Shown: piece by piece, positions 2,682 through 31,987 of the stretch
Position numbering within the stretch: position 1 is the first letter of the stretch
How the letters are laid out: each line of letters begins with the position of its first letter
DNA from: Candidatus Paracaedimonas acanthamoebae
Lineage (GTDB): Bacteria; Pseudomonadota; Alphaproteobacteria; Caedimonadales; Caedimonadaceae
NCBI GenBank assembly: GCA_000743035.1
Contig: CP008938.1
Location: 39,043-71,042 of the forward strand
DNA: 32,000 nt
Direction: 5' to 3'
Notes under the pieces: model-generated
The model's input: the letters and a program-made list of their open reading frames with translations, nothing else
Told to the model about the DNA's origin: nothing
The model's database searches: none
Program-made: the position numbers and the translations under genes

Positions 2682-2976
2682 AATAGGTCCCCCAAATAAT
2701 GTTTCTTTAAGCTTAGTAACTCATTTCCTAAGCCACAGACAAGTTAGCAAGAATATGGGAAAGGTAGCTAGAATTAATTTCTAATTAACCAAAAACTTCT
2801 TACTCATCTTTGATATTATTGATTATGGGTTGCATATTATGTGATGCATATAAGATCTATAAACCCCCACTCCCTCTAGGAAATTTTCACGAATGTACCT
2901 TTATATAACGCATTTTGTGCTTTAAGGTCATATCCAGTACATGGGTTTATATTGCACCGACATGCCCACTAGGCTT

Positions 2977-5900
2977 TTATAAAGGCAACTCAACTTCGTG
3001 CTCTTTCTCAAGTTCCAAAGTTTTAGTTATCTTCAGGGCAATTCCCTTAAAATGTTGTTCTTCTTTTTGAGCGACAGATTTAATTGAAGAAGAATCAATG
3101 GTGTCGCCTTTTTCAAGGGCAAGCATTGTATACGCAAACCTCTTTGTGATCTCAAAGCTCTGAGGGTGAGCGAGAGCCTCTGGGTCGTCTTTTTTTAGAA
3201 TTTCGGTTGCTTGCAAAACCAAACTCAATTTTTTAGGATGAAGGTTTATACTCTCTTCTAAGTGTTGATAGTAGTTAGCTCCTATTCTTGCGGTTTGTTC
3301 TGAAGCTCCAGCTTCAAGAAACTTTGTATAGGTTTTTTCAATATTTTGATGACTTGCTGAGTAAACTCTTTGGGTATCCATATAAATCTCATAAGACTTA
3401 GGAGCTTTGCCATGTTTGAGGAGATGCTCTTGATAAAGTCTTCCTTCAATTTTTGAGAGTCTATCCGCATACGTAAAGAGTTCGTCTTGAGTCAATTGCT
3501 TGTTTTCAAGAGCATATTCTATATAGCGCTCTTGTCTTTCTTTCTCATGATAAACACGTTGAGTAAGGACCTTTTCTGAGAGCTCAGGATAAAAATGCTT
3601 AAGAACAATCATTCTGTTAAAAGTAGGATCATCTTCTTTTAAAAGACTTTGAGTTTTTTCTTGAGGGACTTCTTGGGTTGTTGGTGAGAGGATAGTCCTA
3701 TTAAGAACAATTTGTTCTTCAGTGAGTCGGGCTTGAGGGCGTCCTGAGAGGTGGGTTTCCTTTTGGGAGCGTCTTTCTTTGAATGAAGCAACCTCCTTAA
3801 GCACTTCTTGAACAACAGCAATCCCTTCTTCTTGAAGAATATCATTAAAATCCCGTCCCTTTTCCCCTTGTGGTCTAACAATAGAGGCTTTGAACCCCTC
3901 TTCTTGAAGTTTCTTTAGATTTTGCTCAGATGATTTCCAAGCCTGAGAGCCCACCTCATCTGCATCACAACATAAGATGACAGGCTGATCCTTGTCTTTA
4001 ATATGGCTTCCTACATAGCGCATATTAGAAAGGCCTAAAGTTACAAGAATCCTCCCTTGAATGCCAGCTTCTTTTAAAGAGAGGGCTGTCTCAATTCCTT
4101 CTGCAACATAAGTAGGACCTTCCCCTGCTTGAACCTCAACAGCCGTATTCTTAATGGATCCTAAAGAGCGCTTTTTAACTTCAATATCTGCTTTATTTGC
4201 TGTTTGGGGATCGAGATAGATCAGTTGGACCGCTGTCAGCTTCTCTTGAGGATCTCGTGAAAAGGAAGCTAAGACTGGATAAGAGGGGGCTTTGTCATAA
4301 TCTTTATACTCAGCAATAAACCTTAAATCTTCGGGCAGCTCTGCTGTTTTAATATGACGATGTTCTCTTAAGTATTTTTCTGCAAGCTTTCCTTGAATGG
4401 AGCGTGAAGTATCATAAAGCTTTTTTGTAGTAGCTTGTGACTTCTCAATTTTAGCCTTTTCTTCTATCTCAGCTTGGAGTTTAAGCTCATTCTGCTTTTG
4501 TGCTCTTTCTTCCCAATTGATGGATATCAATTGAGGGGCATTAATCTCTTCTCCTATCTGCTTAATGGCGTCTTTATAAGAAATTTTAAGTGATTTGCTC
4601 ACATAATTAAAGATGTCCCCACCTTCACCCGTTTTAAAGTTACTCCAGGTGCTTTGATCCCGATAGATGACAAATCCTCCTTTAGAGCCGTATCTTATTT
4701 CATGAGAGCGGTAAGTAGGCTTAGGATTCGTCACCCACAGGTCAATATGACGTGCAAATATCTCTTCAATGTGTGATTTTGTAAGGCTTGAGAGGATATC
4801 TTCTTTATCATAAAGAGGTGTTTTATAAGCTTTGGGGAGAGGGTGCCCTTTCTTTTCTGTGTATCTCTCAGCCTCACGCTCCTCTCGATAAGAAAGCTCT
4901 GCTTGACTCTTGCCAGGGATAAGCCTTCTCTCGTCCTGCTCAATAAGGTGCCCATCCAAGGTCAGTCCAGCTTTATCTAAAGCCTTTTGAATGCGCCCTT
5001 GTACCTTTTCATCTCCCAAGCTCAACTGGTCTTTTAAGAACAAAACAACAGCGTGATCTTTAAACTTCTCAGGATCTCTCTCATGAATCTTTTGAAGGCG
5101 ATAACTTGAGGACGCATACCGTAAAGCTTGATCTTTCACTTGTCTTAAAGAGGGGTCGAATACTTCTTGATTTTGAGAGACAAATCCCCCTTGGATTAGA
5201 TCAAAAGCAGCCTTATTCCTTTTGCCTGCGGCGATAGCAAGATGGGGAATTTCTTGATTTTCTGACTTAATAATATGATCAATTTCATTAAGCTTTTTCT
5301 CGAACAAATCATTTTGTCTCAAGGCAAGAGAGATAATCTCTTTTTGGACGCTCCCTTGCTCTGGGGTATTTAAATCCCATCCATAGGTTTGAGCCCCTTT
5401 TTCTATCCAAGTCTGAACTTTATGTTTAAGAGCCTCTTTGGCGGCATTTTGACCATCTCCTTCTTTCTCAAAGGATGTCCAATCTTGAGAGGTCAATTTT
5501 GCTTCTTTAAGAGCGTGAGTCGTTCTTTGAATCGTTCGCTCAACAAAAAAGTGTGGATTATATTTGGCATTCTTAGCATGAAGCTGAGCTTCAAGTGCAA
5601 GGACGTGTTCTTGATAGGCAACCTTTTCACCTGCCAATTTAAGGTCTGCTTGCTCAGAATATACTTGCCAGATATCGGAGAATCTTTGCTTGGCCTCATT
5701 ATATCCCTCTAATAGAAGAGAGACGTCGCCTTGTTTTTCGTGAGGTAAAGATAAGATCGTTCCATAATGATGAAGAGCCTCAACAGAAACTCTTTCTTGC
5801 TTGAGGGCTGTTAAGGTGTAAGTAAGGCGTTCATCTTGTTCTAAAGAAAGCCACCCTTGAATCTCTTGAGCAAGTGCTGGTTTTTCTTGAGGAGAGGCTT

Positions 5901-17368: not shown

Positions 17369-17613
17369 AGGCCTAATGTGTACGTCCAGTCCTTTTTGGG
17401 ACAAGATTAGTTCCTCTTATATTATTGTAGTTGTCAAATGTAGGATTCAAGCCAAGTACGCGGTGTGAGAATTATCTCCGTATTATATGATATGATGCAT
17501 AATATACGGATTTTAAAGAACTTTGAATGAATACTTCAATTATATAATCTTCTGATTTAAAATGCTTTTTTGAGATGCTATCCCAAAAAGGACTGGACGT
17601 ACACATTAGGCCT
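17369..17613. mobile_element. MITE-like element bounded by perfect 33-bp terminal inverted repeats
   Basis: aggcctaatgtgtacgtccagtcctttttggga (17369-17401) is the exact reverse complement of 17581-17613. 179-bp AT-rich interior without a credible gene. Confidence 0.55.
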
Positions 17614-17791
17614 TTAGAAAGGCTTTGAATGATTTTTGACTTACCAAAAAACAACCCCGAAAATGACCGCTTGAATTTATCGGAAAAACAAGGGGCTATA
17701 AAAGCATGGTGAAGCAAAGCCTCTCAATCATTATCGTAGGTTCTTGTGGTACCTTACGTTCCTTGTATCTCTATAAGAGATCAGTATGTGA

Positions 17792-17883
17792 AGCTAATAT
17801 ACTGATAAAGGTAGAGAGAAGTCGTTACGTACCTTGTAGCTAATATACTGATAAAGGTAGAGAGAAGTCGTTACGTTCCTTGT
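17792..17883 (+). repeat. 46-bp tandem duplication (2 units, 1 mismatch) inside the IS110 5' non-coding region
   Basis: agctaatatactgataaaggtagagagaagtcgttacgt[a/t]ccttgt at 17792-17837 and 17838-17883. The unit end ttacgttccttgt also occurs at 17753-17765. Confidence 0.9.
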
Positions 17884-18032
17884 GCCACTTGAGCACGTCA
17901 TAAAGAATTAACTCTCTCTATCTATTATTGGTTTTAAAACCGAACGGTATCTTATGACCTCAATATTGAGTGATCATGCATTTTACAAGGTTGGTTAAAA
18001 ACCATGTTTATTATACTAGATGAGGTGATTTT

Positions 18033-19007
18033 ATGCAAACCGCTCATGTTATTGGCCTTGATATATCTAAAAAGACGTTTGATGTTTGTACTATTTTTGA
18101 TGGAAAAATGAAGATTCATTCATTTTATAATAATAAAGCAGGCTATGAAGCATTCGTTTTATGGATTAAGAAATTTGATCTAATAAATCCCCATATTTGT
18201 ATGGAAGCCACAGGATCTTATTCAGAAGGTGTTGCTGAATTTTTATATAGTTTCGGTTATAAAGTCAGTATAATAAATCCGTTACAGATAAAATCCTTTA
18301 GGCTTAGTAAGATGATTCGTCAGAAAACAGATAAATCTGATTGTGAAGTCATTGCCATGTTTTGTTTGCAAAACTGTCCATCCCTATGGAATCCAAAGAG
18401 TCGAGAAAAGAAAGAATTACATGAAATCAATGCACGAATTGATGCTCTTAAAATGGAATTAAATAGGATAATCAATTTTCTCGAAAAAGAACTTTTAAAT
18501 AAAATCGTCATAAGATCAATAAAGGAAGAAATGCAATTTACTAAAGATATGATCGAAAAATTAGAACATGAAGCTTTGAATATTATCAAGAATTCACCAG
18601 TGATGAAAAAGCAATTTGATCATCTTACAGAAATAAAGGGTGTTGGCATAAAAACAGCCGTAACAATTTTAGCAGATATGCCTGATATCAACCATTTTAA
18701 GAATGCAAAACAGTATGCTGCTTTTGTGGGGGTAACCCCCTCTCATCTTCAATCCGGAACGTCTGTTAAAGGTAAATCCCACATCTCTAGACTTGGCTCC
18801 AAAAAAATTAGAAAAACTCTCTATATGGCCGCAGTTGTCATAAAAAACCACAATCCTCATTTTCAATTTCTTGTAAAACGTTTGGCCAGTAAGGGTAAAC
18901 CACCAAAGGTGATTATTGTGGCTATTATGAGAAAGTTACTACATATATTCTTTGGAATTCTTAAATATAATGAATCTTTTAATCAATATAAAGCTTTTCA
19001 ACCTTGA
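18033..19007 (+). CDS. IS110-family transposase/recombinase
   Basis: N-terminal VIGLDISKKTFDVC (DEDD RuvC-like) and C-terminal GVGIKTAVTILADMPDINHFKNAKQYAAFVGVTPSHLQSGTSVKGKSHISRLGSKKIRKTLYMAA (Transposase_20-type domain). Confidence 0.92.
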   Translation: MQTAHVIGLDISKKTFDVCTIFDGKMKIHSFYNNKAGYEAFVLWIKKFDLINPHICMEATGSYSEGVAEFLYSFGYKVSIINPLQIKSFRLSKMIRQKTDKSDCEVIAMFCLQNCPSLWNPKSREKKELHEINARIDALKMELNRIINFLEKELLNKIVIRSIKEEMQFTKDMIEKLEHEALNIIKNSPVMKKQFDHLTEIKGVGIKTAVTILADMPDINHFKNAKQYAAFVGVTPSHLQSGTSVKGKSHISRLGSKKIRKTLYMAAVVIKNHNPHFQFLVKRLASKGKPPKVIIVAIMRKLLHIFFGILKYNESFNQYKAFQP

Positions 19008-19040
19008 CTCCAAAGACGGTATCTTATGTAGATAGACCCT

Positions 19041-19196
19041 TACCTTAAGTAAAATCTACTTAAAATGAGCAATTAAGTGAATTCTACTTATGGGTTCTTT
19101 TCAATTTTTTCCGTAGTTTGATACTAATAAGGCGCATGCCTGATTAAGAAGCATTATTAAGCTTCTCTTATTTATCTTAGATTTAAGGAGGATTAC
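19041..19196 (+). promoter_or_regulatory. Leader/promoter module copy 1, with two TAAGTA-N5-TACTTA-type boxes, a conserved GC-rich box, a leader hairpin and an RBS
   Basis: Ungapped homology, about 85% (150/177 by hand count), between 19041-19217 and 23997-24173. Boxes at 19046-19062 and 19074-19090. RBS aaggagg. Confidence 0.7.
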
Positions 19197-20411
19197 ATGA
19201 AATTGAAATACTTAATGCTGCCTGTTATAACTTTTATTTATGTACACCAAGGAATGGCAAGCAATCCTTTAGAAAGTGAGCTTGAAAGAGAGGGTAATAG
19301 TGAAATTGTGGCCTATAGAACCATAAATTCCGTATTAGATGAAGAAACACTCAATTTTCAGGTTGAAACCCCTAAGTATTATTATATAAAAGCTGTCGCT
19401 CTACAAGATGAAGAACAAATGCAAGAGGCAATAGAATATTTTAAGCTAGCAGCTCACTCAGGTCATCATCGTGCTGCTTATATCTTGGCTCATTTCTATT
19501 TGGAGGGAAAATACTTAGAAAAATCTGCAGAAGAGGGAATGAAGTATCTTATTATGTCTAAAGATAGTGGAAACCTTGAAGCAAAACAGGAACTGGATTT
19601 TATTAGAAATTCAATAGATGAATTAACTGAATATTTGCCTGAATCAGGAATAATTAAAGGGTTACGTAAAGCAAGCTACGTAGCTAAAAAAGTTGAGAGT
19701 ATTACTTGGTGGCTACAATGTAGTGGTACAGGTCTTTATCACTTCTTAGACATTTTAGGATATAATAGTCAAGCAAGTTTTGTAGAAAATGGGTTACGAT
19801 ATAACCAAATGATTAATGGTGTAAGTAAGGTAGTTTATGGTGGAAGTGATTCAATCGTTTTTGGTAGACTTGAGCCACTTTTAACTAGTGGTCTTGGTGT
19901 CATTCAACTAGGAAGTATTTATCTGCAATCAGAAACCCTAAAACAACAAAAAAAATTAGAGTTAAAAGCTCAAAAATTGAAAAATTTAAAAAAAGAAAAT
20001 TCAGAAGACTATCCTTCTGAGTGGGAATCAATTTACCATGAAAAACAACAAAAGATAAAGGAAAAGAAAAAAGTATGTGATAATCAAATGATAGGTGTAA
20101 ATATTGCTGAAAATATTATGGGTACAACTCTTATAGCCTGGGCAGAAAATAAAGAAAGAAATTTTCTACAAGTTTTTCTGAATAGTGCATCAAAATGCTT
20201 TAAAGTATACGGCTATCAGATTATTTCTACAATCCTCAAGGAAACTCCAATTAAAGAAGTAGCAAAAAGAAAAGTGGGTAGCATTATTGACAATATCAGG
20301 AGTAATTTTAGTGAAGCACTTAATAGTAATTCTAATCTAGATAAAGTGTTTGATAAATTTAAAAACGAATTTTATGAGTATATTGATAGGCACGTAAGCA
20401 TGGCACCTTAA
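19197..20411 (+). CDS. Secreted/membrane Sel1-like-repeat protein
   Basis: Signal-like MKLKYLMLPVITFIYVHQGMAS. AIEYFKLAAHSGHHRAAYILAHFYLEGKYLEKSAEEGMKYLIMSKDSGNLEAK is a Sel1 (SLR) repeat pattern. Gly-rich hydrophobic central region and Lys-rich coiled coil. Confidence 0.75.
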   Translation: MKLKYLMLPVITFIYVHQGMASNPLESELEREGNSEIVAYRTINSVLDEETLNFQVETPKYYYIKAVALQDEEQMQEAIEYFKLAAHSGHHRAAYILAHFYLEGKYLEKSAEEGMKYLIMSKDSGNLEAKQELDFIRNSIDELTEYLPESGIIKGLRKASYVAKKVESITWWLQCSGTGLYHFLDILGYNSQASFVENGLRYNQMINGVSKVVYGGSDSIVFGRLEPLLTSGLGVIQLGSIYLQSETLKQQKKLELKAQKLKNLKKENSEDYPSEWESIYHEKQQKIKEKKKVCDNQMIGVNIAENIMGTTLIAWAENKERNFLQVFLNSASKCFKVYGYQIISTILKETPIKEVAKRKVGSIIDNIRSNFSEALNSNSNLDKVFDKFKNEFYEYIDRHVSMAP

Positions 20412-20507: not shown

Positions 20508-23500
20508 CTAATGCTTTTTAAAAAATTCAAGCTTAGCAAGTACCCTTAATAAATGAGGGGTTTTCTCTCCATAAGAAACTTTACCTAAGGAAAGGGCCTG
20601 CTGCAAGTTCTGTTCTGCTTTTTTGAGAAGAAGGCTTGATTGCAAAGGGCCTTTCCCTTGGGCTTTTTTGCGGTATAAATCTGCTAAGAGTTCATAATCC
20701 ATAAATTGCTCAGGGTGCGAACTGAGTTTAAAAATTGACAATGACCTGAACAATAAATTTTCTGAAGTTTCAAGTTGATTTTGAGCCATATAAAGGCATG
20801 CTAAAGCCCTTAATATACGGGCTGTTTCAATATGGTGAGTCCCATAGATTCTCTCATAATTCTTTAAGCTTTCTTGAAGATTCTTTTTTGCTAAATTTTG
20901 CCTTCCAGTTCCACAATATAAAATACCTAAATAATATTTGGCTAAAAAGATTGAGGAGTGTTGAGGTGGAAGATACTTTTGGCACTCTCCTAGAGCTTCT
21001 TTAAGCATAATTTCTGCTTCATGATAGCTTCCCATTTCTGTTAAAAGGTTTCCTATATGAAGAGAAAACCAAGCAATATCATCATGATTATCAGGAAGAT
21101 GTATTTGATGAAGCTTTTTCCCTTGTTGAAAGAGCTCTTGGGCTTTCTCATAATAGCCCAGTGCTTTATAAACTTTTCCGAGAAATCCTAAATTCCAACT
21201 AATCAGACGATAATGCTTTTTAAGAATCTTTTGAGTTTGTATATGGTAAGATTCTTCAAGAGAGTTTTTTGCAAGGAGGTAGTCTCCATTTTCTACATAA
21301 GCTTTGCCAAGCTTAATAAGGCTTGTTGAGATTCTTAAGTCATCCTTAGGCATATAGTTTTTTAAAAGAGCCACAGATTCTTTTAAATAATTAACACCAT
21401 CTTTATAGTGACCTAAGTATAGACTTACATCCCCTAAATGCTCAAGTGTCCAAGAAAGCCTCATATAATGGGTGGGAAACAGTGTACGATAAATCTCTAA
21501 ACCAGCTTGTACGTCACTTAAGGCAGCTTTATACTCTCCTAAACACTTTTTAACAATCCCTCTGTAGACAAGAATGTTGGCTTTCCTTAAGTCTATTTTA
21601 AGACATTCAGGCTTTATTTTTTTAGCATTTTTTAAAAGCTTGAGGCTCTTATTTAAAGTTTCAGTTGCCTTAGAATAAATGTTGAGTAAAAGGTAAAATC
21701 CTGACACCTGACACCCTAAATATCCTCTTTGCTCGTCTGTAAGCAAATTTGTGTGCTTTAAAAGGGCCTCTCCATGGTTCATTAGTTTCCTTATTTTAGC
21801 AAAATCTTCTTCGAGGACAGTGTCATAAATAAACTTCTCAAGAAACTCAGAAAGTATATATAATCTGGGGTCATTCAAAGTTAAGTTAAGCTTTTTTAAT
21901 AAATAAGCGCGCATCATTTCTTGAGTGCTGCGATGAATGGAGAATGTTGCAAGACCTTGAGATGAAGTATTATAACTAATTAAAGAATAATGGTGAAGAT
22001 CTTGGATGAAAGTATTAACCAAATCTTTGCTTTTATAACCTTCAAACAAAAATTTCGGTATTGCTTGTGAATCAATGAGTGTTAAAAGGATAAGAAAATC
22101 TTTAAAATCAGGGTGCTTTTGTAGCATTTTTTCAATAGAAAGTTTAATAATACTATAGCGGGTTTGATGATAATTTTGAGATGAGGTTAAGATCTCCTTA
22201 TGGCTTTGGGAAAGATTAGCTTCATCATGATAAAGAGCCCCAAGATATTCATTATAGCTTGCTTTTGTATTCTTTAAGTACTGAGCTGCAAGCGTGACAT
22301 CTAGAGGAAAGGGGGGGACTTGTTCTAAAAATACTTTTAAATCTTTGCGTTCTTCTAAGGTTTGCTCCTTTGAGCTGCTGTGAACCTTTGAGAATAAGTC
22401 TTCTCTTTCTTCAGGATTTAAAGCTGGGATTTGAAGGTGAGCATTAATATAAAGGCAATTTTGAATATTGCTGTTACGCGTTGTGAGGATCACTTTTCCA
22501 GGCCCCCATAAAGTAGCATCATAAGGAAAGTAATACTTAATGTCCGAGAATTGTTCAACATTGTCGTAAATTAAAATCCAATGAGGGTGTTGTTTGAGGC
22601 GATGCTTGACAAAACCTACCATTTTTTCTAAGCGTTTATAATCTTCTTTAATATCTTTTATTTGTTGGAGAAAGATTTTATCTTCTTCAGTGTGAATTAA
22701 GCTCTCAGCAAGGGTTTCAAAAGAACGAGAGAGATTTTCAGGGGTTTCTGCATTGAGTTCCCACACAAGAGATTCTTTATAAATGCGGGCATAGTGGCGA
22801 GCAAGAGTTGTTTTACCCATGCCCCCCATGCCAATAAGAGCTATAGTTTGAATTCCTTTTTGGCCTTTAAGGCTTTTATGCATATGAACCATTAAAACAG
22901 GGCGCTCTAAAAAAAAAGCAGGGGTTGGAATTGGAAGTTCTGATTGAATTTCTATCTTATGACGCTGCTTTAAAGGCCCATGGTAGAAGCCTTTAATAAA
23001 GTAAAACCCTGCTAAACTTATACCCAAAGCTCCTAGAAGAGAATAAGAAAACCCCTTAATGGATAACCAAGAGGAAAGAACAGATTTGTTTTTTCTAGAG
23101 GGTATAGTAGAAGAAAAAAAAGGGGGAGATTCAATTGATTGAGTATGAGCAATAAAGGATTCAGTTATTTTAGTGATATCTGCATGATTAGCAATCAACT
23201 TAATGATATCCAAAAATAAAGCATTTCTATTAAGGTAATGCTTGCACTCGACAGAAAGATAAGGAGAAGGAAGGATTCCTTCTTCAAGCAAATAAACACT
23301 TATTAATGAATAAGAGCTTGAAGCGCTTAAAAACTCTTTTTGTTCTTTTGTACTGAATAATCCTTTTAGAGTTTGGATGGGAAGAAAGTAAATAAGGCTT
23401 TGTATAGGCTGATTCTTTTGGAATTTAATATTTGGAAAAGGCTCATCTATTATAACAAGGGAAGTAATAAAGCCTGCTTGTTTGAGTGTTTCTTCTAAGG

Positions 23501-23933
23501 CTTTTAAGAAATAAGCCCTGTCTGAAATGTCTTCCTTCCATCCAACAATTTGAACAGCACCTTTATGAAAAGGAAGTCTTGCTATAATTTCTAAATTTTT
23601 TTCGAATTCTTTTAGCCAAGAAAGATAAAGATAAAACTTCTTAAGAGTAAAAATATGTGAAGTTTTTTCAATTAACGTGATAAGGCTCTCTTTGGAGTTA
23701 ACCTCAAGCTTTTTAAAAATATTATAAATATGAACTTCAATGGTACGAGGAGAGAGGGAGAGTAAAGCGCCAATTCCTTTGGGGGGCCTTCCATTCATAA
23801 GACAAGCAATGATTTCAATTTCTCGCCGAGTAAAGTGAACATTATGCAAAACTTGAAGTTGATGGATATAAATAAAATCTAGGATGTCTTTAAGGGAACT
23901 CTCAAAAATGTTTGAGGTTTTATTTTGCACCAA
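20508..23933 (-). CDS. STAND-class regulator: N-terminal LuxR/GerE HTH, hydrophobic segment, NB-ARC-type P-loop NTPase, C-terminal TPR array
   Basis: HTH FTRREIEIIACLMNGRPPKGIGALLSLSPRTIEVHIYNIFKKL. Hydrophobic FSYSLLGALGISLAGFYFIKGFY (aa ~295-317). Walker A IALIGMGGMGKTTLARHYA (nt ~22804-22840). ILIYDNVE Walker B-like. Multiple TPR-like YxxAxxxxxxAL repeats in the last ~400 aa. Non-ATG start (TTG 23933 or GTG 23930) behind an AAGGGAGA RBS. Confidence 0.85.
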   Translation of the reverse strand: MVQNKTSNIFESSLKDILDFIYIHQLQVLHNVHFTRREIEIIACLMNGRPPKGIGALLSLSPRTIEVHIYNIFKKLEVNSKESLITLIEKTSHIFTLKKFYLYLSWLKEFEKNLEIIARLPFHKGAVQIVGWKEDISDRAYFLKALEETLKQAGFITSLVIIDEPFPNIKFQKNQPIQSLIYFLPIQTLKGLFSTKEQKEFLSASSSYSLISVYLLEEGILPSPYLSVECKHYLNRNALFLDIIKLIANHADITKITESFIAHTQSIESPPFFSSTIPSRKNKSVLSSWLSIKGFSYSLLGALGISLAGFYFIKGFYHGPLKQRHKIEIQSELPIPTPAFFLERPVLMVHMHKSLKGQKGIQTIALIGMGGMGKTTLARHYARIYKESLVWELNAETPENLSRSFETLAESLIHTEEDKIFLQQIKDIKEDYKRLEKMVGFVKHRLKQHPHWILIYDNVEQFSDIKYYFPYDATLWGPGKVILTTRNSNIQNCLYINAHLQIPALNPEEREDLFSKVHSSSKEQTLEERKDLKVFLEQVPPFPLDVTLAAQYLKNTKASYNEYLGALYHDEANLSQSHKEILTSSQNYHQTRYSIIKLSIEKMLQKHPDFKDFLILLTLIDSQAIPKFLFEGYKSKDLVNTFIQDLHHYSLISYNTSSQGLATFSIHRSTQEMMRAYLLKKLNLTLNDPRLYILSEFLEKFIYDTVLEEDFAKIRKLMNHGEALLKHTNLLTDEQRGYLGCQVSGFYLLLNIYSKATETLNKSLKLLKNAKKIKPECLKIDLRKANILVYRGIVKKCLGEYKAALSDVQAGLEIYRTLFPTHYMRLSWTLEHLGDVSLYLGHYKDGVNYLKESVALLKNYMPKDDLRISTSLIKLGKAYVENGDYLLAKNSLEESYHIQTQKILKKHYRLISWNLGFLGKVYKALGYYEKAQELFQQGKKLHQIHLPDNHDDIAWFSLHIGNLLTEMGSYHEAEIMLKEALGECQKYLPPQHSSIFLAKYYLGILYCGTGRQNLAKKNLQESLKNYERIYGTHHIETARILRALACLYMAQNQLETSENLLFRSLSIFKLSSHPEQFMDYELLADLYRKKAQGKGPLQSSLLLKKAEQNLQQALSLGKVSYGEKTPHLLRVLAKLEFFKKH

Positions 23934-23996
23934 AAAATAGGTCTCCCTTAGCCTAAGTTTATTTGCTCAACTTTAATAAATATTTTTCTGCCTGTC

Positions 23997-24152
23997 TACC
24001 TTAAGTACAATCTACTTAAAAGCTGTAATTAAGTAGATTGTACTTATAGGTGTTTTTCGCTTTCTTACGTAGTCTGACCCTAATAAGGCGCATGCCTGAT
24101 TAAGAAGCATCATAAAGCTTCTTTTGTTTATCACATATTTAAGGAGAATTAC
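23997..24152 (+). promoter_or_regulatory. Leader/promoter module copy 2, in the divergent intergenic region between the STAND gene and the coiled-coil/patatin operon
   Basis: Boxes TAAGTAcaatcTACTTA (24002-24018) and TAAGTAgattgTACTTA (24030-24046) together form an 18-bp-arm inverted repeat. Conserved ctaataaggcgcatgcctgattaagaagcat. Hairpin 24102-24123. RBS aaggaga. Confidence 0.7.
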
Positions 24153-24872
24153 ATGAAATTAAAATACTTAATGATTACAACTTCAATTCTACTAGGTACT
24201 GGCCAAGTATTTGCAAGTTCACACTTTGATGCTGAAGCTGAAGAATCTTATCGAAGCCAATCAAGAACCAGAAGCACAGAGTCAAGATCTTATATGGAAT
24301 ATGACATTAAAGAACTTGAAGCACTTGCTCAAAAACTAGCCGTTATAAAAAAAATTAAGGAAACAGAAGCCGAACTTCCTCTGATAGCAGCTTTAGCTTC
24401 TGATAGAATTAAAGAAATAAAATATAGAGAAGAGAAAAGGGAAGAAGAGCTGCAGCAGCAAAAAATAAATACTGAAGGAATTCGTAATAAAATTGAACAA
24501 GATAAAATAATAGCATTCAACAAAAGCAAAATGGAGGCAGCACAAATACAAGCAAAAGTAATCAGCATTTTGAGTGAAACAGAGGTAAAGGTAGAAGGTA
24601 AGAGAATTGCTAATATGCGGAAAGCACGCAAGTTGCAAATGGATAAGGTAATATCAGAAGAAAGCATGGTTGGTACTCTATGGAGTGGTCTTTTTGGGAG
24701 AAAAATTGAGGATGGTGATATTTATGGTCAAATAGCAGCAGATAGAGAGAGTCAAGCCAAAGAGAAAAAGAAAATGCAAGAATATTTTTCGGGAATGTTG
24801 TCAATAGAGGCCCCTCAGAAAACTATTGGATCAATTACAAGATCAGGCCCTCGTATTGAAGAGTTAGATTAA
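24153..24872 (+). CDS. Secreted coiled-coil protein (239 aa), first gene of a three-gene operon
   Basis: Signal MKLKYLMITTSILLGTGQVFASS. Charged heptad-like sequence (EEKREEELQQQK...). Strong RBS. Confidence 0.75.
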   Translation: MKLKYLMITTSILLGTGQVFASSHFDAEAEESYRSQSRTRSTESRSYMEYDIKELEALAQKLAVIKKIKETEAELPLIAALASDRIKEIKYREEKREEELQQQKINTEGIRNKIEQDKIIAFNKSKMEAAQIQAKVISILSETEVKVEGKRIANMRKARKLQMDKVISEESMVGTLWSGLFGRKIEDGDIYGQIAADRESQAKEKKKMQEYFSGMLSIEAPQKTIGSITRSGPRIEELD

Positions 24873-24881
24873 GGTATAGTC

Positions 24882-25589
24882 ATGAAGGTAATATATAATA
24901 TTCTTAAATGCGCCCTTATATGTATATGTCTTCATGGTTTTTGGTCTTTCAGTTCATTAGCCAGTAATCCGGCTGATGAACTGGAATTATTTGGCCAGAA
25001 ACACAGACGTTGGGTAAATAGGGGTCGAAACCAGGCTTCACAACCCTTAAAGGGCAAAAAAGACAATCATCAAGAAGAATTAAGAAGAATTAAAAAAGAT
25101 TTGATGACGAGATTGTTAAGTGTCTCTCAAGAAATTCTTGAGCAAAAAATAAGTGAAAATCATTTTACCCCAACACAACGAAATGTTGAGACATTACTTA
25201 CATACGACCTACAACAGCTCAAATCTATATTAACTTACGAAGAGGAAAGGACAAAAATTATATTAAGTATTTTAAAGCAGAGGAATATATTCATAGATAT
25301 AAAAGAGCAAGAAGAACAAATTCATTTTCAAGTTCTTTTAAGGGAGCAAATGGAAAATGCTTGTAAATTTTATCAAAAGAAATTCGAGATGTATAAAACA
25401 AGATGTGAAGAGCAAGAAAAGAGAATTCAATCACAAATGATGCGAATTTTAAAGACTGAAGCTAGCAAGTTACTTAGTAATGTTCACACGAAAATGTTAG
25501 AAGTTGAAGTTGATAATCTTAGGGAAGAGATAAAATCAAAAGAAAAAATAATTGAAGAGCATGACAAAAGCAATTGCTTGTTACAATAG
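24882..25589 (+). CDS. Signal-peptide/membrane-anchored coiled-coil protein (235 aa)
   Basis: Starts 9 nt after the upstream stop. N-terminus MKVIYNILKCALICICLHGFWSFSSLAS. The remainder is Glu/Lys/Gln-rich helical sequence. Confidence 0.72.
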   Translation: MKVIYNILKCALICICLHGFWSFSSLASNPADELELFGQKHRRWVNRGRNQASQPLKGKKDNHQEELRRIKKDLMTRLLSVSQEILEQKISENHFTPTQRNVETLLTYDLQQLKSILTYEEERTKIILSILKQRNIFIDIKEQEEQIHFQVLLREQMENACKFYQKKFEMYKTRCEEQEKRIQSQMMRILKTEASKLLSNVHTKMLEVEVDNLREEIKSKEKIIEEHDKSNCLLQ

Positions 25590-25606: not shown

Positions 25607-27292
25607 ATGAAAAATATTCATATTGTTAAATATTGTATGGTTTTACCATGTATAATATTAAATTTATATCATCCTGCGAGATCTTCGGGAGTGCCTAAGA
25701 TGGATATTGAATCATATCGCCCTAACTTAACAATTAATTACTTTAATATAAATACAAGCTTAGAGCAGCTTGAGGGCCAACGAAAAAGGCTAGAAGAGCA
25801 ATACCAAATGGCTTTAGATGAAAACCATAAAACTATATCTCTGTTAGAGAGAGAAGATAAAGAAAAAGAGGCACAGTTTCAAAGCAAACTTAATGAGCTT
25901 CGTAAGGAAACTCAAGAATATTATAGAAAAAGTATGTTTTTAAAAAGTGATAGGCAACAAAGAGAAGCAGAGCAACAAAGGAAACTCTTGCGTGTGAGAG
26001 ATTATGCTGAAAAAATAATAACTATTAGTCAAGATGAGGTAGATCAAACCAAAAGCATCCTTGATAATTTAGAGCAGCGCCTACAGATAGAGACTTATTT
26101 AAGTCCTTCTCTTATTTCTCCTATAGAAAACTTGAAAAGAATATTGGTCGGGACTAACCCTATTGATGCTAATCCTACTGCCCTTGTGAGACAAATAAAA
26201 TACAAAACACACCAACAAAGAGACCAAATCTTAGAAGAATATGAAGATCTGGAATTAGATTTTCGAAGAAATAGTGTTAAAAGCCTTGAGAGACCCTTCT
26301 ATTATGGTCTGTCCTTAGATGGGGGCGGTATTAGAGGGTTAAATCTTTGTCTCTGCTTGGAAGAAATAGAAAGGGTTACAGGTAAAAAAATAGCCGAATT
26401 ATTTGATTTTATAGGAGGGACATCGATTGGGGGGATTATAGCTCTAGGGCTAACTATAGGAGAATATCAAAGCCCCTACTATTCTGCTAATCATTTTAGT
26501 GAGCTATTATACAATCATAGCAAGAATATTTTCCCAAGGGAAAAAAAATTAGATCTAGTAACAAGCACATTCTATACGTTTAAAGATCTTTTCTGGTCAG
26601 CTCGTTATTCTGCGGCTCCTTTACGAGGTTTATTAGAGAGTTCCTTTTACGAAGCGCGTCTAAGCCAGGCTATTAAGCCTGTCCTTACAACAGCAGTTCA
26701 TGCAGTTGACAATTCTCTACTTTTTAAAAGAGCACAGACTTTTGAAAGCTTGGAAGCACTTGCAGATGACAATAATGATTTCTTAATTGTTGACGTTGGA
26801 CTTGCAACTTCTGCGGCTCCAACTTTTTTCCCTGCAGCTGAAGTATGGAATATCAAACGCACTAGAGCAATGAATCTTGTGGATGGCGGACTATGGTATA
26901 ATAATCCTTCACAATTAGTTTATAATAGAATGATGAATCATTTTAACTGTAGTGTTGAAAATATGATGCTAGTTTCGATAGGAACTGGAAAAGCATCAGG
27001 AGCTTCTAGCTCAGCTTTACCTAAAAGTGCTTCTTTGCTAAGGGCAGCTAAACCTACTATTGAGGCTATGATAATGGCCAATACCGAAGGTGTGCATGAA
27101 GAAATGTCTAGAATAAAAAACTTGAATTATCATAGAATTCAGCCGTTCTTAGAAAGAGATATTCAATTAGACGATGCTTCAGAGGATGCTTTAGAAGTCC
27201 TTAAGCTTGCTGCTGCAAGCCAATATAGAGAGATTAAGCCAATAGCAAAAACCTTATTAAAAAACTACGATTTTAAGAAGGATATATTATAA
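25607..27292 (+). CDS. Patatin-like phospholipase with hydrophobic N-terminus and ~230-aa coiled-coil extension
   Basis: GLSLDGGGIRG (oxyanion hole), GGTSIGG (GxSxG nucleophile), LVDGGLWYNNP (catalytic Asp). The start is set at ATG 25607 behind an AGGAG RBS. The listed 25574 start overlaps the upstream gene. Confidence 0.88.
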   Translation: MKNIHIVKYCMVLPCIILNLYHPARSSGVPKMDIESYRPNLTINYFNINTSLEQLEGQRKRLEEQYQMALDENHKTISLLEREDKEKEAQFQSKLNELRKETQEYYRKSMFLKSDRQQREAEQQRKLLRVRDYAEKIITISQDEVDQTKSILDNLEQRLQIETYLSPSLISPIENLKRILVGTNPIDANPTALVRQIKYKTHQQRDQILEEYEDLELDFRRNSVKSLERPFYYGLSLDGGGIRGLNLCLCLEEIERVTGKKIAELFDFIGGTSIGGIIALGLTIGEYQSPYYSANHFSELLYNHSKNIFPREKKLDLVTSTFYTFKDLFWSARYSAAPLRGLLESSFYEARLSQAIKPVLTTAVHAVDNSLLFKRAQTFESLEALADDNNDFLIVDVGLATSAAPTFFPAAEVWNIKRTRAMNLVDGGLWYNNPSQLVYNRMMNHFNCSVENMMLVSIGTGKASGASSSALPKSASLLRAAKPTIEAMIMANTEGVHEEMSRIKNLNYHRIQPFLERDIQLDDASEDALEVLKLAAASQYREIKPIAKTLLKNYDFKKDIL

Positions 27293-27532: not shown

Positions 27533-27578
27533 TTAAATGGAGGGGCAATGAGTGCGGCTTGGGGTGTCCAGCCCCCGA

Positions 27579-28460
27579 TTAAAGATCCAGATTTAAGTTT
27601 GTATTTTGGTTAGTATTTCCTCCATTATTATAGGTATGAATCTTTTGGTTTTGTGTTTGTGTATTTGAAGAGCGGATGCGGGCAAGAGGAGCTGGAGGTT
27701 TATATCCTAATGATGAGTGAGGTCTTATATGATTATAATGCTGCCGCCATTCTTCTATAAGCACTTGAGCTTCTTTTAGACTATAAAATACTTCTCCATT
27801 GAGAAGTTCATCTCTCAATTTTCCATTAAAGCTTTCATTGTAGCCATTCTCCCAAGGTGAACCTGGCTCTATGTAAGCTGTCTTAACATTTAAGCTCTTG
27901 AGCCACTCTTTAAGAATTTGGGCTTTAAACTCACTGCCATTATCGGAGCGAATATGCTCAGGGATCCCTTCTTGAATAAATAAATCACTTAAGATATCGA
28001 GAATATCATTTGATGTTAAGTGATACCCAACCCTGATAGCTAAACATTTCCTTGTATATTCATCTATGACTGTGAGAAGTCGGATCTTTTTGCCATTTGC
28101 AAGGCGTTCCGCCACAAAATCATAACTCCAAACATGATTCGGCCAGCAAGGTTTTAACCTCAAACAAGAACCATCATTAAGATAGAGTCTTCCTTTTTTG
28201 GACTGTCTTTGTGGTACTTTAAGACCTTCTTCTCGCCAAATACGTTCAACCCTCTTATGATTGATATGCCAGCCTTCTATTTTAAGCAGAGCATGAATCC
28301 GACGATAACCATATCTTCCATAACGAGTTGTTAACCTAATAATAGCTGCTCTTAACGCTTCCTCATCATCTTCTTGTTTAGAGCAATATCTCAGCACCGA
28401 ACGATGAATCTCCAAAACCTCACAGACACGCCTTTGGGAGATCCCAAACTTCTGTTGCAT
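27579..28460 (-). CDS. IS3-family transposase OrfB (rve/DDE integrase core), expressed as an OrfAB fusion by -1 frameshift
   Basis: WSYDFV...LTVIDEYTR...[10 protein letters not shown]...[20 protein letters not shown]...[12 protein letters not shown]. The OrfB frame is open upstream to the slippery site and is -1 relative to orfA. Confidence 0.92.
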
Positions 28461-28492
28461 CTTAATGGCACATTGCCGCTGTCGCTCGGTGC

Positions 28493-28768
28493 TTAAAAGT
28501 TTCCCTCTGCAGCTTCTTTCAATATAAGCTTATCCAAAGTAAGATCGGCAACAGCTCTTTTTAACCGAGCATTCTCTCGCTCAAGCTCCTTAAGCCTTCT
28601 TGCTTGATTAACCTTCAAGCCCCCATAAACCTTACGCCATTTATAATAAGTTGCATCCGAGATCCCTAATTGACGACACACCTCAATGATACTCTTGCCT
28701 TGAGATAACAAAACATTACTCTGGCGTAATAACCCTATAATTTGCTCCGCTCCATAGCTCTTCTTCAT
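28493..28768 (-). CDS. IS3-family transposase OrfA (HTH)
   Basis: [16 protein letters not shown]...[21 protein letters not shown]...[18 protein letters not shown] (HTH plus leucine zipper). The start is set at the second ATG behind a GGAGGAGG RBS. The slippery G_GGA_AAC lies at 28499-28505, in frame 0, just before the stop. Confidence 0.9.
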
Positions 28769-29510
28769 AATAGCCTCCTCCATTCAATCAATCTCGCTAT
28801 ACTAACTAAAAACTGGAGCTATTATAGGGAGGAAGGTCACTTTTAATCTTGTTTAGATTTTGTACCATCATTATAATCTCCATTGTCATCAGTGTTATTG
28901 ACAAACCTGAGAGAGGTAGCCGCCTCTCTTAGGTCTTTCATAAGAAGATCACCGTGATCTTCTTATTTTGTTGCTGCTCAAAACTTTTGGTCTCTTGCAG
29001 TAACACCTTGATCATGCGAGATTATTTAGCTGTAAAATATTAGGGAAATATTCGTAAGGGGAATACCCTTAAGGGTATTAAAATTTGGCTTGTTTGATGC
29101 CTAATAGTCAGGCATCCTAGCTTAAATATAGATTTTTATGTAAAAATACGGTTTTGATACTGTGTTAAGGATCAAGTATTATTCTTAAGGGTTTGAGGGT
29201 TAAAGGCTGTTTTATATTTCAGCACCCCGAAGCATATGTGAAAAAGCTTTCTTATATTTGGTCTCCAAGTCTACTCCCTTATCTCAAAGTTGGAGTAGAA
29301 CCAGAAAACTAACTCCAGGCTAATTATTAAAATTTATAGTTAACTTTAAGGCAATTAAAATGTATTTCTTGTTGCCTAGGTAATTAAATAGTTATGATTT
29401 ATCCTAAAAGAACCTGCAATCGTACTTAATTGCAGTATACCTGAGAACCGAGATTTAATTACTAATTATTTAATTATAAATAAAATAAGTTAGCGTATGG
29501 AGAACTTGAG

Positions 29511-31283: not shown

Positions 31284-31844
31284 TTAATTACCTCTCAAAT
31301 ATTGATACAAAGTCTCTCGACTAATATTAAGCTCTTTTGCAATGGCTGATTTACTGTGTCCTTGAGAAACCTTCTCCTTAAGCTCTGTTATGGCTTCTTC
31401 TGTCAGCTTTTTCTTCCTTCCTTTATAAAGTCCTTTTTGCTTGGCAAGATAAATGCCTTCTAATTGACGCTCTCTGATAAGGGCGCGCTCAAACTCTCCA
31501 AAAGCGCCCATGACGGAGAGAAGAAGCTTGGCCATTGGGGAGTCCTCACCTGTAAAGACTAACTGCTCTTTCTCAAATCGAATACCTATCCCCTTCTCTG
31601 TTAAACCTTTTACAAGCTCCCTTAAATCATCAAGATTACGAGCTAATCGATCCATGCTATGGACAACAATCGTATCTCCGTCTCTTGCATAGTGAAGAAG
31701 TTCTTCTAATCCAGGTCTTTTGGTATCTTTTCCTGATGCTTTATCAGTGAAAACTTTATCAAGAGGGATTCCATCGAGTTGTCGTTCTGTATTTTGGCCA
31801 AAGCTGCTGACGCGGATATAGCCAAGTATTTTACCTTTAGACAT
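31284..31844 (-). CDS. Serine recombinase (resolvase/invertase family)
   Basis: ILGYIRVSSFGQNTERQ (catalytic Ser), DTIVVHSMDRLARN, GEFERALIRERQ, and C-terminal HTH SAIAKELNISRETLYQYL. Confidence 0.92.
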   Translation of the reverse strand: MSKGKILGYIRVSSFGQNTERQLDGIPLDKVFTDKASGKDTKRPGLEELLHYARDGDTIVVHSMDRLARNLDDLRELVKGLTEKGIGIRFEKEQLVFTGEDSPMAKLLLSVMGAFGEFERALIRERQLEGIYLAKQKGLYKGRKKKLTEEAITELKEKVSQGHSKSAIAKELNISRETLYQYLRGN

Positions 31845-31874
31845 AATAATCCTTTTTATGATAAATAAACAAAA

Positions 31875-31987
31875 TTGTCAAGATAGAGTCTAAGAGGTTG
31901 GCAAGCATTTGTCAATAAATTCTTAACCCTACTTATTTCTGACAGGGTTACGACCCTCTCCCTGACATCAGGTTAGAGTATACTCTA
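31875..31987. promoter_or_regulatory. Putative res/recombination-site region upstream of the serine recombinase
   Basis: Several TGTCA/TGACA half-sites in dyad arrangement: TTGTCAA-N16-TTGGCAA (31875-31904) and TGTCA-N25-TGACA (31910-31944). Also the palindromes CCTGAcaTCAGG (31961-31972) and TAGAGTATACTCTA (31974-31987). Confidence 0.4.

Follow-up and report, generated by a model that had tools for sequence, protein, structure and literature searches.

Paired palindromic boxes as a candidate operator of a STAND-LuxR regulator on a plasmid of Candidatus Paracaedimonas acanthamoebae

Background

Operators of the FixJ/NarL/LuxR type comprise two inverted half-sites of ~6 bp about one helical turn apart, and they lie upstream of or overlapping a -35 element and beside the gene of a GerE-domain protein. 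Here, we present an analysis of an element that would share these features, a pair of 17-bp palindromic boxes with the motif TAAGTA-N5-TACTTA, which occurs twice in a 32,000-nucleotide (nt) segment (contig CP008938.1, positions 39,043 to 71,042; hereafter the window) of a 169-kb conjugative plasmid of Candidatus Paracaedimonas acanthamoebae, an endosymbiont of Acanthamoeba. An earlier note on this DNA had proposed the boxes as the operator of the adjacent gene, which encodes a STAND protein with a LuxR-type helix-turn-helix (HTH) domain (hereafter STAND-LuxR). Judging from sequence, we lean towards a reading of this kind, in which the boxes would be dimer-binding sites for the N-terminal GerE domain of this NB-ARC/TPR protein and would serve both the activation of neighbouring effector-like genes and autoregulation; we consider it the probable explanation, if by no means a secure one.

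The lux box is 20 bp long and NarL sites have a 7-2-7 arrangement, whereas the boxes are 17 bp long with a partly conserved, asymmetric 5-nt spacer and come as two mirror-image dyads 28 bp apart. In the NarL-like heptamer TACTTA(T/A), the TAC points inward in the boxes but outward in NarL sites, and the presumed ligand is a STAND ATPase instead of a response regulator or an acyl-homoserine-lactone receptor. The TAAG/CTTA core of the boxes resembles the half-sites of UvrY/GacA and also those of RcsB. UvrY binds the 18-nt inverted repeat TGTAAG-N6-CTTACA (PMC4682653).

With the MalT/LAL regulators, the window protein shares the fusion of a signal-dependent STAND NTPase and a repeat sensor to a GerE HTH, and in both cases adjacent genes would be controlled and several sites per promoter would be filled on oligomerisation. 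A MalT/LAL regulator, however, requires an N-terminal MalT-type ATPase and a C-terminal LuxR HTH, whereas the HTH of the window protein is N-terminal, its ATPase is NB-ARC and a transmembrane-like segment lies between the two, and this identity was therefore rejected. The decamers of MalT boxes are asymmetric and form direct or inverted arrays, unlike the compact palindromes of the window. A further parallel is the PmrA box, an upstream element of Legionella and Coxiella Dot/Icm effector genes that consists of tandem direct repeats and is recognised by an OmpR-type response regulator. Both are short upstream elements common to otherwise unrelated effector-like genes in an amoeba-associated bacterium, but the window elements are palindromic, carry a whole duplicated leader and the first codons with them, and have the regulator gene next to them. 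The domain order agrees with that of AfsR/SARP-type and GutR-type proteins, pathway-specific activators of neighbouring genes in which an N-terminal DNA-binding domain is followed by an NB-ARC-like ATPase and TPRs. The DNA-binding domain of the window protein differs, that of AfsR being an OmpR-type winged helix which binds direct heptamer repeats. We know of no protein of the AfsR/GutR type with a transmembrane segment, nor of one described in Holosporales endosymbionts or on plasmids beside effector-like genes. The classification of STAND proteins is said to come from Leipe et al. in 2004.

In the searchable literature, no prior description of this STAND-LuxR family or of the box motif was found. 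The operator type is ordinary, though undescribed for this regulator family, and no new principle of gene regulation is revealed; the new aspects lie more in the architecture of the regulator and in a portable promoter/leader cassette, whose copies are shown here to swap between genes and strains. If the favoured reading is true, the boxes would be the first cis-element, and a patatin phospholipase, coiled-coil proteins and a Sel1 protein the first candidate targets, for a large and uncharacterised STAND-LuxR family of amoeba endosymbionts (Holosporales). The 17-bp dyad and the ~120-amino-acid (aa) N-terminal domain would then provide a handle on the regulation of plasmid-borne effector-like genes in an obligate intracellular bacterium.

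The paired boxes

All four boxes listed in the earlier note were found exactly where it had placed them (Table 1), and our measurements agree with its distance of 28 bp between box centres in both copies and with its count of seven perfect half-sites in eight. Each box is a 17-bp dyad whose half-site centres lie 11 bp apart in all copies, and each pair makes up a 45-bp element. Three perfect matches to the motif are present in the window, and four if up to one mismatch is allowed, all confined to two loci in 32 kb; the corresponding figures from 300 simulations of the window with a first-order Markov model are 0 and 0.18. Perfect 6-N5-6 palindromes are frequent whatever their sequence (22 in the window versus 14.5 expected), and the signal is thus the recurrence of one half-site and not palindromy as such. 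When the 45-bp elements of copy 1 and copy 2 are compared, they differ at just one of the 24 positions in half-sites but at 7 of the 21 remaining positions (Fisher p = 0.017); substitutions appear to avoid the half-sites in this comparison and also in a third cassette, on contig L001, described below.

Two structural claims of the earlier note stood in part. The 5-nt spacers had been described as variable, and the copies do differ outside the half-sites, but the spacers are not random: that of box A resembles CAATC and that of box B is its mirror image (GATTG, GATTC, AATTC), which gives the pair an overall two-fold axis. An inverted repeat with 18-bp arms had been described for copy 2, and its arms (24002-24019 and 24029-24046) are indeed fully complementary, with an 18-bp stem of -16.7 kcal/mol in the DNA fold (z = -8.2). 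This long hairpin is not conserved, however: in copy 1 and L001 its fold is weak, at -6.6 and -7.7 kcal/mol, and contig L004 lacks it, only the separate dyads folding there. The 45-bp element itself is a real, non-random and conserved cis-element. In line with the earlier note, the copy 2 boxes lie 69-116 nt from the STAND-LuxR start (TTG 23933 or GTG 23930) and 107-151 nt from the ATG at 24153 on the other side.

Several known element types were compared with the boxes and rejected. For a CtrA box (TTAA-N7-TTAA, 11 bp from start to start), the TTAA motifs at 24001, 24016 and 24029 are wrongly spaced, at 15 and 13 bp. An intrinsic terminator was not flagged by the terminator scan, and the boxes have AT-rich stems, the tails TAGGTG and TGGGTT without a T-run, and a long stem that is not conserved. 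An end or target of the IS110-family insertion sequence (IS) near copy 1 was dismissed because the junction ACGGTATCTTATG lies ~30 nt left of box A and the boxes of copy 2, L001, L004 and L056 occur without this IS. A res or other serine-recombinase site was likewise discarded, as the resolvase gene of the window is 7 kb away and its upstream repeats are of the TGTCAA type and not TAAGTA. As regards dispersed palindromic repeats of the REP/MITE type, which would recur many times in a genome irrespective of gene function, the 32 kb hold just two box loci; genome contigs and PLSDB gave no hit, and metagenome contigs none related to STAND genes.

The promoter/leader cassette

Both box loci are the 5' ends of one 177-nt direct repeat whose copies are 85% identical, so that the two loci are not independent. 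The repeat is a cassette which extends from box A to codon 7 and precedes two otherwise unrelated signal-peptide genes. As the boxes of copy 1 do not adjoin a STAND-LuxR start, the boxes belong foremost to the promoter/leader cassettes of the plus-strand genes.

Contig L001, a Logan contig from a related strain, carries the genes around copy 1 at high identity (99.3% for the Sel1 coding sequence and 98.5% for the STAND-LuxR coding sequence), whereas the stretch L001:215-387 is only 77% identical to the window cassette 19041-19217 and everything further left is unrelated. The cassette before the Sel1 gene has therefore been swapped. The one in L001 is a third paralogous cassette, 77-83% identical overall to the others and with intact half-sites (TAAGTAcaatcTACTTA and TAAGTGgattcTACTTA), and the homology among all three starts exactly at the left edge of box A. 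We considered an IS-related breakpoint for the break in homology between the window and L001 at box A and rejected it, since the whole cassette was replaced by a paralogous copy. In the L001 cassette, moreover, parts resembling copy 1 and parts resembling copy 2 are combined, a mosaic that implies gene conversion or the swapping of cassettes.

Downstream of the boxes, the decamer CGTAGTYTGA is kept in all three paralogous cassettes and includes the candidate -10 of the plus-strand genes (Table 1), which the promoter consensus scan did not flag. The leader hairpin at 24102 precedes a T-rich run, and its arms have changed compensatorily in L001 (AAGCAGC/GCTGCTT). A further small conserved hairpin of the 5' leader, AGGCgcatGCCT, is located at 24085-24096, and L004 has a 10-bp hairpin at the place equivalent to the leader hairpin. 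The leader hairpins may act as an attenuator or a stabiliser. Rfam models at gathering thresholds had no match in the window, and a search of PLSDB with the 186-nt cassette gave no match.

The regulator and boxes at related loci

The description of the neighbouring gene product as a LuxR-type STAND protein was borne out by Pfam, which places a GerE/LuxR HTH at residues 34-86 (PF00196, E = 1e-13) and NB-ARC at 352-580, followed by TPRs; a TPR_MalT match stays below the cut-off (43.1 vs 45 bits). The protein (P0001) is identical to the annotated IM40_10715, and its gene probably starts at GTG 23930, which aligns with the ATG of the homologue in contig L056. The predicted -35 of this gene is separated from box A of copy 2 by 3 nt, and L056 keeps both promoter hexamers and their spacing. 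Between the HTH/linker part and NB-ARC, residues 294-312 form a hydrophobic, transmembrane-like segment; in an alignment of the window protein with seven homologues, the most hydrophobic 19-residue stretch (Kyte-Doolittle 1.6-2.6) falls at one position with a K/R-rich N-terminal flank in 8/8. A single transmembrane helix is thus predicted, so that the HTH would be on one side of the membrane and the ATPase on the other. The closest solved HTH structures are the C-terminal domains of FixJ and NarL. The STAND-LuxR family comprises at least 86 clusters, mostly from Paracaedibacteraceae and alphaproteobacterial metagenome-assembled genomes, and four of its proteins share the recognition helix (S/F)-R-T-[IV]-E-[VA]-H-I-Y-N-I-F-K-K.

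Boxes were also found with homologues of this protein. Contigs L004-6, from three samples, encode P0002, which is 54% identical to the window protein and has the recognition helix SPRTVEVHIYNIFKKF (SPRTIEVHIYNIFKKL in the window protein). Their box pair, TAAGTAcaatcTACTTA and TAAGTAtgttTACTTA, lies 14 nt past the P0002 stop codon and precedes three small signal-peptide genes with no relationship to their counterparts in the window. The second of these boxes has a 4-nt spacer, so that the box centres are 28.5 bp apart, and the distances from box centres to the ATG are 147 and 118.5 nt in L004 compared with 143 and 115 nt in the window. The 17-mer TAAGTAcaatcTACTTA is identical in L001, L002 and L004-6, and the DNA around the L004 boxes is hardly alignable with the window. 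Contigs L056-8 encode P0004, with 40% overall protein identity, the same helix and ~87% DNA identity over the promoter and HTH-coding part. Here, a single perfect box, TAAGTAatttgTACTTA, is present in the STAND-proximal position 3 nt upstream of TAGACA-17-TAAAGT; the distal box is decayed and there is no divergent secreted-protein gene. Both boxes are present in every case where the gene of a secreted protein follows (L001, L004 and both window copies), and the proximal box alone is kept in L056, where only the STAND promoter is left, a pattern of retention that agrees with the activation model proposed below. By a composition estimate, ~0.005 perfect boxes would be expected by chance in the ~10 kb of L004 and L056, and the only DNA-binding protein that recurs in every box context is the STAND protein.

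A second subfamily, represented by P0010 (L067) and P0009 (L070), which are 57% identical to each other, has the helix APKTVETHTYNVMKKL and a related dyad, TTAAGGAaaataTACTTAGGT (TAAGGA-N5-TACTTA). This dyad lies inside the longest perfectly conserved upstream block (29 nt) and 4-5 nt before a putative -35 (TTTAAC-17-TAGCTT), and the divergent neighbour genes differ between L067 and L070. Upstream of P0010 there is also a perfect 11-nt inverted repeat with arms 43 nt apart (L067:3766-3778 and 3822-3835, AGATTGCTCAT and ATGAGCAATCT), which is partly conserved in L070. A search of genome contigs with the N-terminal alignment returned distant or truncated loci only, all without boxes.

The contigs that carry P0002 and P0003 stop 5-166 nt before the gene, so that the promoters are readable only in part. 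Upstream of the P0004 promoter, L056:6-146 holds a 46-codon N-terminal fragment identical to the start of the paralogue P0003. This fragment and the breaks of the P0002 and P0003 contigs suggest that the promoter and the HTH-coding segment form a repeated, recombining unit.

Proposed mechanism and alternative explanations

In the mechanism that we propose, the NB-ARC/TPR part would switch to an active, oligomeric state in which HTH dimers occupy both dyads, the 6-5-6 geometry of the inverted repeats being that of FixJ/NarL-type HTH dimers, as in the UvrY repeat. Box B would overlap a poor -35 (centre at about -44) and recruit RNA polymerase to the promoter that serves the neighbouring genes of secreted, effector-like proteins, with cooperative help from box A; the targets would be the Sel1-repeat protein on one side and the coiled-coil proteins and patatin phospholipase on the other. 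The placement at -44 holds if CGTAGTYTGA carries the plus-strand -10, and would then correspond to a layout typical of activator-dependent promoters. On the divergent side, box A, 3 nt upstream of the STAND-LuxR -35 (centre at about -47), would mediate positive autoregulation. The portable cassette, placed before different genes of secreted proteins, would recruit them to the regulon. Box position and the conserved STAND-LuxR promoter would fit autoregulation combined with control of the adjacent secreted-protein genes. The sequence features, the co-occurrence and the pattern of conservation are observed; the identity of the binding protein, which we infer from its co-occurrence with the boxes, the sign of regulation and the transcription start sites are predictions. 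The earlier idea of an operator beside the STAND-LuxR gene is thus partly supported: the boxes accompany homologues with the same helix in L004-6 and L056-8, but copy 1 does not adjoin a STAND-LuxR start.

A number of observations weigh against this reading. The autoregulation with divergent control put forward in the earlier note is in keeping with a proximal box abutting the conserved STAND-LuxR -35/-10, but the 166 nt available before the P0002 start contain no box, so that autoregulation is not universal, and the P0025 locus has neither a box nor a comparable compact dyad. For the plus-strand genes, the consensus scan gave no convincing sigma-70 -35/-10. With 28 bp (2.7 helical turns) between dyad centres, the two dimers would not share one face of the DNA. 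A 4-nt spacer, as in the second box of L004, is usually poorly tolerated by rigid HTH dimers. The conserved transmembrane-like segment makes the topology of the regulator, and hence its mechanism, uncertain. In addition, there is an ascertainment bias, as it was by way of the STAND protein that the related loci were retrieved; the strict box-pair pattern had 0 matches in the genome-contig collection, which lacks the source plasmid, and a motif scan of metagenomes returned 48 loci, almost all of them tandem-repeat arrays, with an IS607-like element as the only one resembling the boxes and no further STAND-linked instance. Finally, paralogues share unusually similar DNA over the promoter and HTH-coding part (87% between the window and L056), and part of the conservation of the boxes could reflect recent exchange and not selection.

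Among other explanations, it is possible, though unlikely, that the boxes are the operator of another DNA-binding protein, plasmid-wide or chromosomal and encoded outside the window, with the STAND-LuxR gene as one member of its regulon. The dyad architecture and the position next to promoters would suit any dimeric HTH protein, inspection covered ~19% of the 169-kb plasmid and no part of the chromosome, and P0002 lacks a box upstream of its own gene. However, STAND-LuxR is the only regulator gene that always accompanies the boxes, in four independent contexts and two or three species-level lineages; the recognition helix is nearly the same at the three loci whose half-sites are identical, and the second subfamily, with its different helix, has a slightly different dyad (TAAGGA). 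That the boxes have no function of their own, being conserved through recent duplication or exchange of cassettes and palindromic by accidents of inverted micro-duplication, is improbable. Substitutions avoid the half-sites in the three paralogous cassettes, the L004 boxes are kept where the surrounding DNA can no longer be aligned, L056 has a perfect proximal and a decayed distal box, and the second subfamily has its dyad inside the longest perfectly conserved upstream block. These features are set against the origin of both window copies from one 85% repeat, the exchange of promoter and HTH-coding DNA among paralogues (87% DNA identity versus 40% overall protein identity) and the abundance of perfect 6-N5-6 palindromes in the AT-rich window.

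Very improbable, too, is a role in recombination, either as the terminal site of a recombinase that moves the cassette or as the relic of an IS end or target. It would account for the start of three-cassette homology exactly at the left edge of box A and for the swap before the Sel1 gene between strains; an IS110-family element is situated 30 nt left of copy 1, the window has a resolvase gene, and an IS607-like element has a look-alike pair, ACCTTAAGTGtgataTACTTAAA-N7-TTAAGTGaggtgTACTTATGG, directly before its serine-recombinase gene. Yet boxes occur at one end of the cassette only, the other end showing the gradual loss of homology inside the coding sequence that is expected from homologous exchange, and the right IS110 junction is the 13-nt ACGGTATCTTATG at 19016 and not a box. 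No IS is situated near the boxes of copy 2, L004 or L056, the resolvase has different upstream repeats of its own, typical recombinase core sites are longer than a 6-5-6 site, and the fixed distance to the downstream ATG together with the position by a conserved -35 points to transcription. We regard as least probable of all that the boxes act through nucleic-acid structure, as an 18-bp-arm hairpin or cruciform or as two RNA mini-hairpins serving as terminator, insulator, processing site or stability element. The perfect copy 2 stem with its low folding energy speaks for it, as does the position of the L004 boxes 14 nt past a STAND stop codon, where a terminator would be expected, and in RNA the sole half-site variant, TAAGTG, would still pair by way of G-U. 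But the long stem is weak or absent at the other loci, the AT-rich 6-mer stems are followed by no T-run and were unflagged by the terminator scan, L056 keeps one dyad only and Rfam was without match. With a divergent start on either side and the conserved STAND-LuxR promoter downstream of them, the copy 2 boxes are probably not transcribed.

Returning to the preferred reading of the boxes as GerE-domain binding sites, a wider version of it may be put forward only as speculation that we find doubtful. The boxes would be the cis-element of an undescribed class of membrane-anchored one-component regulators (LuxR HTH, linker, single transmembrane helix, NB-ARC, TPR) expanded in Paracaedibacteraceae. 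The boxes-to-codon-7 cassette would be a portable module for regulon recruitment, placed by recombination before secreted effector-like genes on a conjugative plasmid and coupling them to a host-sensing STAND switch.

Gene neighbourhood and mobile elements

The features of the window are collected in Table 1. Its conjugation segment includes genes for T4CP, a 2402-aa relaxase-helicase-primase, a TraD-like protein and ProQ/FinO as well as umuDC. The patatin gene is called as 561 aa in L001 and L002.

Table 1 Features of the window, with positions counted from its first nucleotide
Feature	Position	Strand	Details
IS110-family element	about 17850-19015		transposase 18033-19007
Promoter/leader cassette copy 1	19041-19217	+	precedes Sel1-repeat gene
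Copy 1 box A	19046-19062	no strand	TAAGTAaaatcTACTTA
Copy 1 box B	19074-19090	no strand	TAAGTGaattcTACTTA; one half-site mismatch (TAAGTG)
Gene behind copy 1	19197-20411	+	404-aa signal-peptide protein, weak Sel1/TPR match
STAND-LuxR gene	20508-23930	-	GerE HTH, linker, transmembrane-like segment, NB-ARC, TPRs
Predicted sigma-70-type STAND-LuxR promoter	23970-23998	-	-35 TAGACA (23998-23993), 17-nt spacer, -10 TAAAGT (23975-23970); from consensus scan
Promoter/leader cassette copy 2	23997-24173	+	boxes, ~60 nt, two small leader hairpins, Shine-Dalgarno sequence, ATG, 7 codons (MKLKYLM)
Copy 2 box A	24002-24018	no strand	TAAGTAcaatcTACTTA; STAND-proximal dyad
Copy 2 box B	24030-24046	no strand	TAAGTAgattgTACTTA; mirror image of box A, proximal to plus-strand operon
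Candidate -10, plus-strand promoter	24070-24075	+	TAGTCT (copy 1 TAGTTT); predicted from sequence only
Small leader hairpin	24102-24123	+	AAGAAGC-N8-GCTTCTT, then TTGTTTAT; twin at 19147-19166; terminator-like in scan
First gene behind copy 2	24153-24872	+	239-aa signal-peptide/coiled-coil protein
Second gene behind copy 2	24882-25589	+	235 aa, coiled-coil
Third gene behind copy 2, putative operon	25607-27292	+	patatin-like phospholipase, Pfam PF01734
IS3-family element	27565-28800	-	orfA 28493-28783, orfB 27579-28460
Resolvase gene	31284-31844	-	7 kb from boxes

Several repeats accompany the mobile elements. The 13-nt ACGGTATCTTATG occurs at 17944, 88 nt upstream of the IS110 transposase start, and at 19016, 9 nt past its stop, and may represent a guide/target pair of a bridge RNA or a direct repeat. 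Beside the left end of the IS110-family element there is a 46-nt tandem duplication (17789-17880), and between this element and the gene of a 636-aa protein a perfect 33-nt inverted repeat (17369-17401 and 17581-17613) encloses 179 nt and could be a structure resembling a miniature inverted-repeat transposable element or a large hairpin. L001 and L002 lack the IS3-family element, and their homology with the window ends at 27564. Elements of the IS607 type, with a MerR-HTH serine recombinase and TnpB, are found in the phage-like contigs L024, L027 and L038 inside a DNA-polymerase gene. In L038 (5131-5178), the look-alike paired boxes ACCTTAAGTGtgataTACTTAAAtaaaagaTTAAGTGaggtgTACTTATGG end at the recombinase start codon with no STAND gene nearby, and they are probably a coincidence or an unrelated operator and less likely a sign of a deeper link. 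Upstream of the resolvase gene, TGTCAA-containing repeats at 31845-31930 (TTGTCAAGATAGAG ... TTTGTCAATAAA) are probably its res site. Near the other end of the window, a 159-nt direct repeat (1688-1846 and 2975-3133) is 91% identical between its copies, the second of which overlaps the 3' end of the 2402-aa relaxase gene, so that a duplicate of this gene end is located 1.3 kb downstream.

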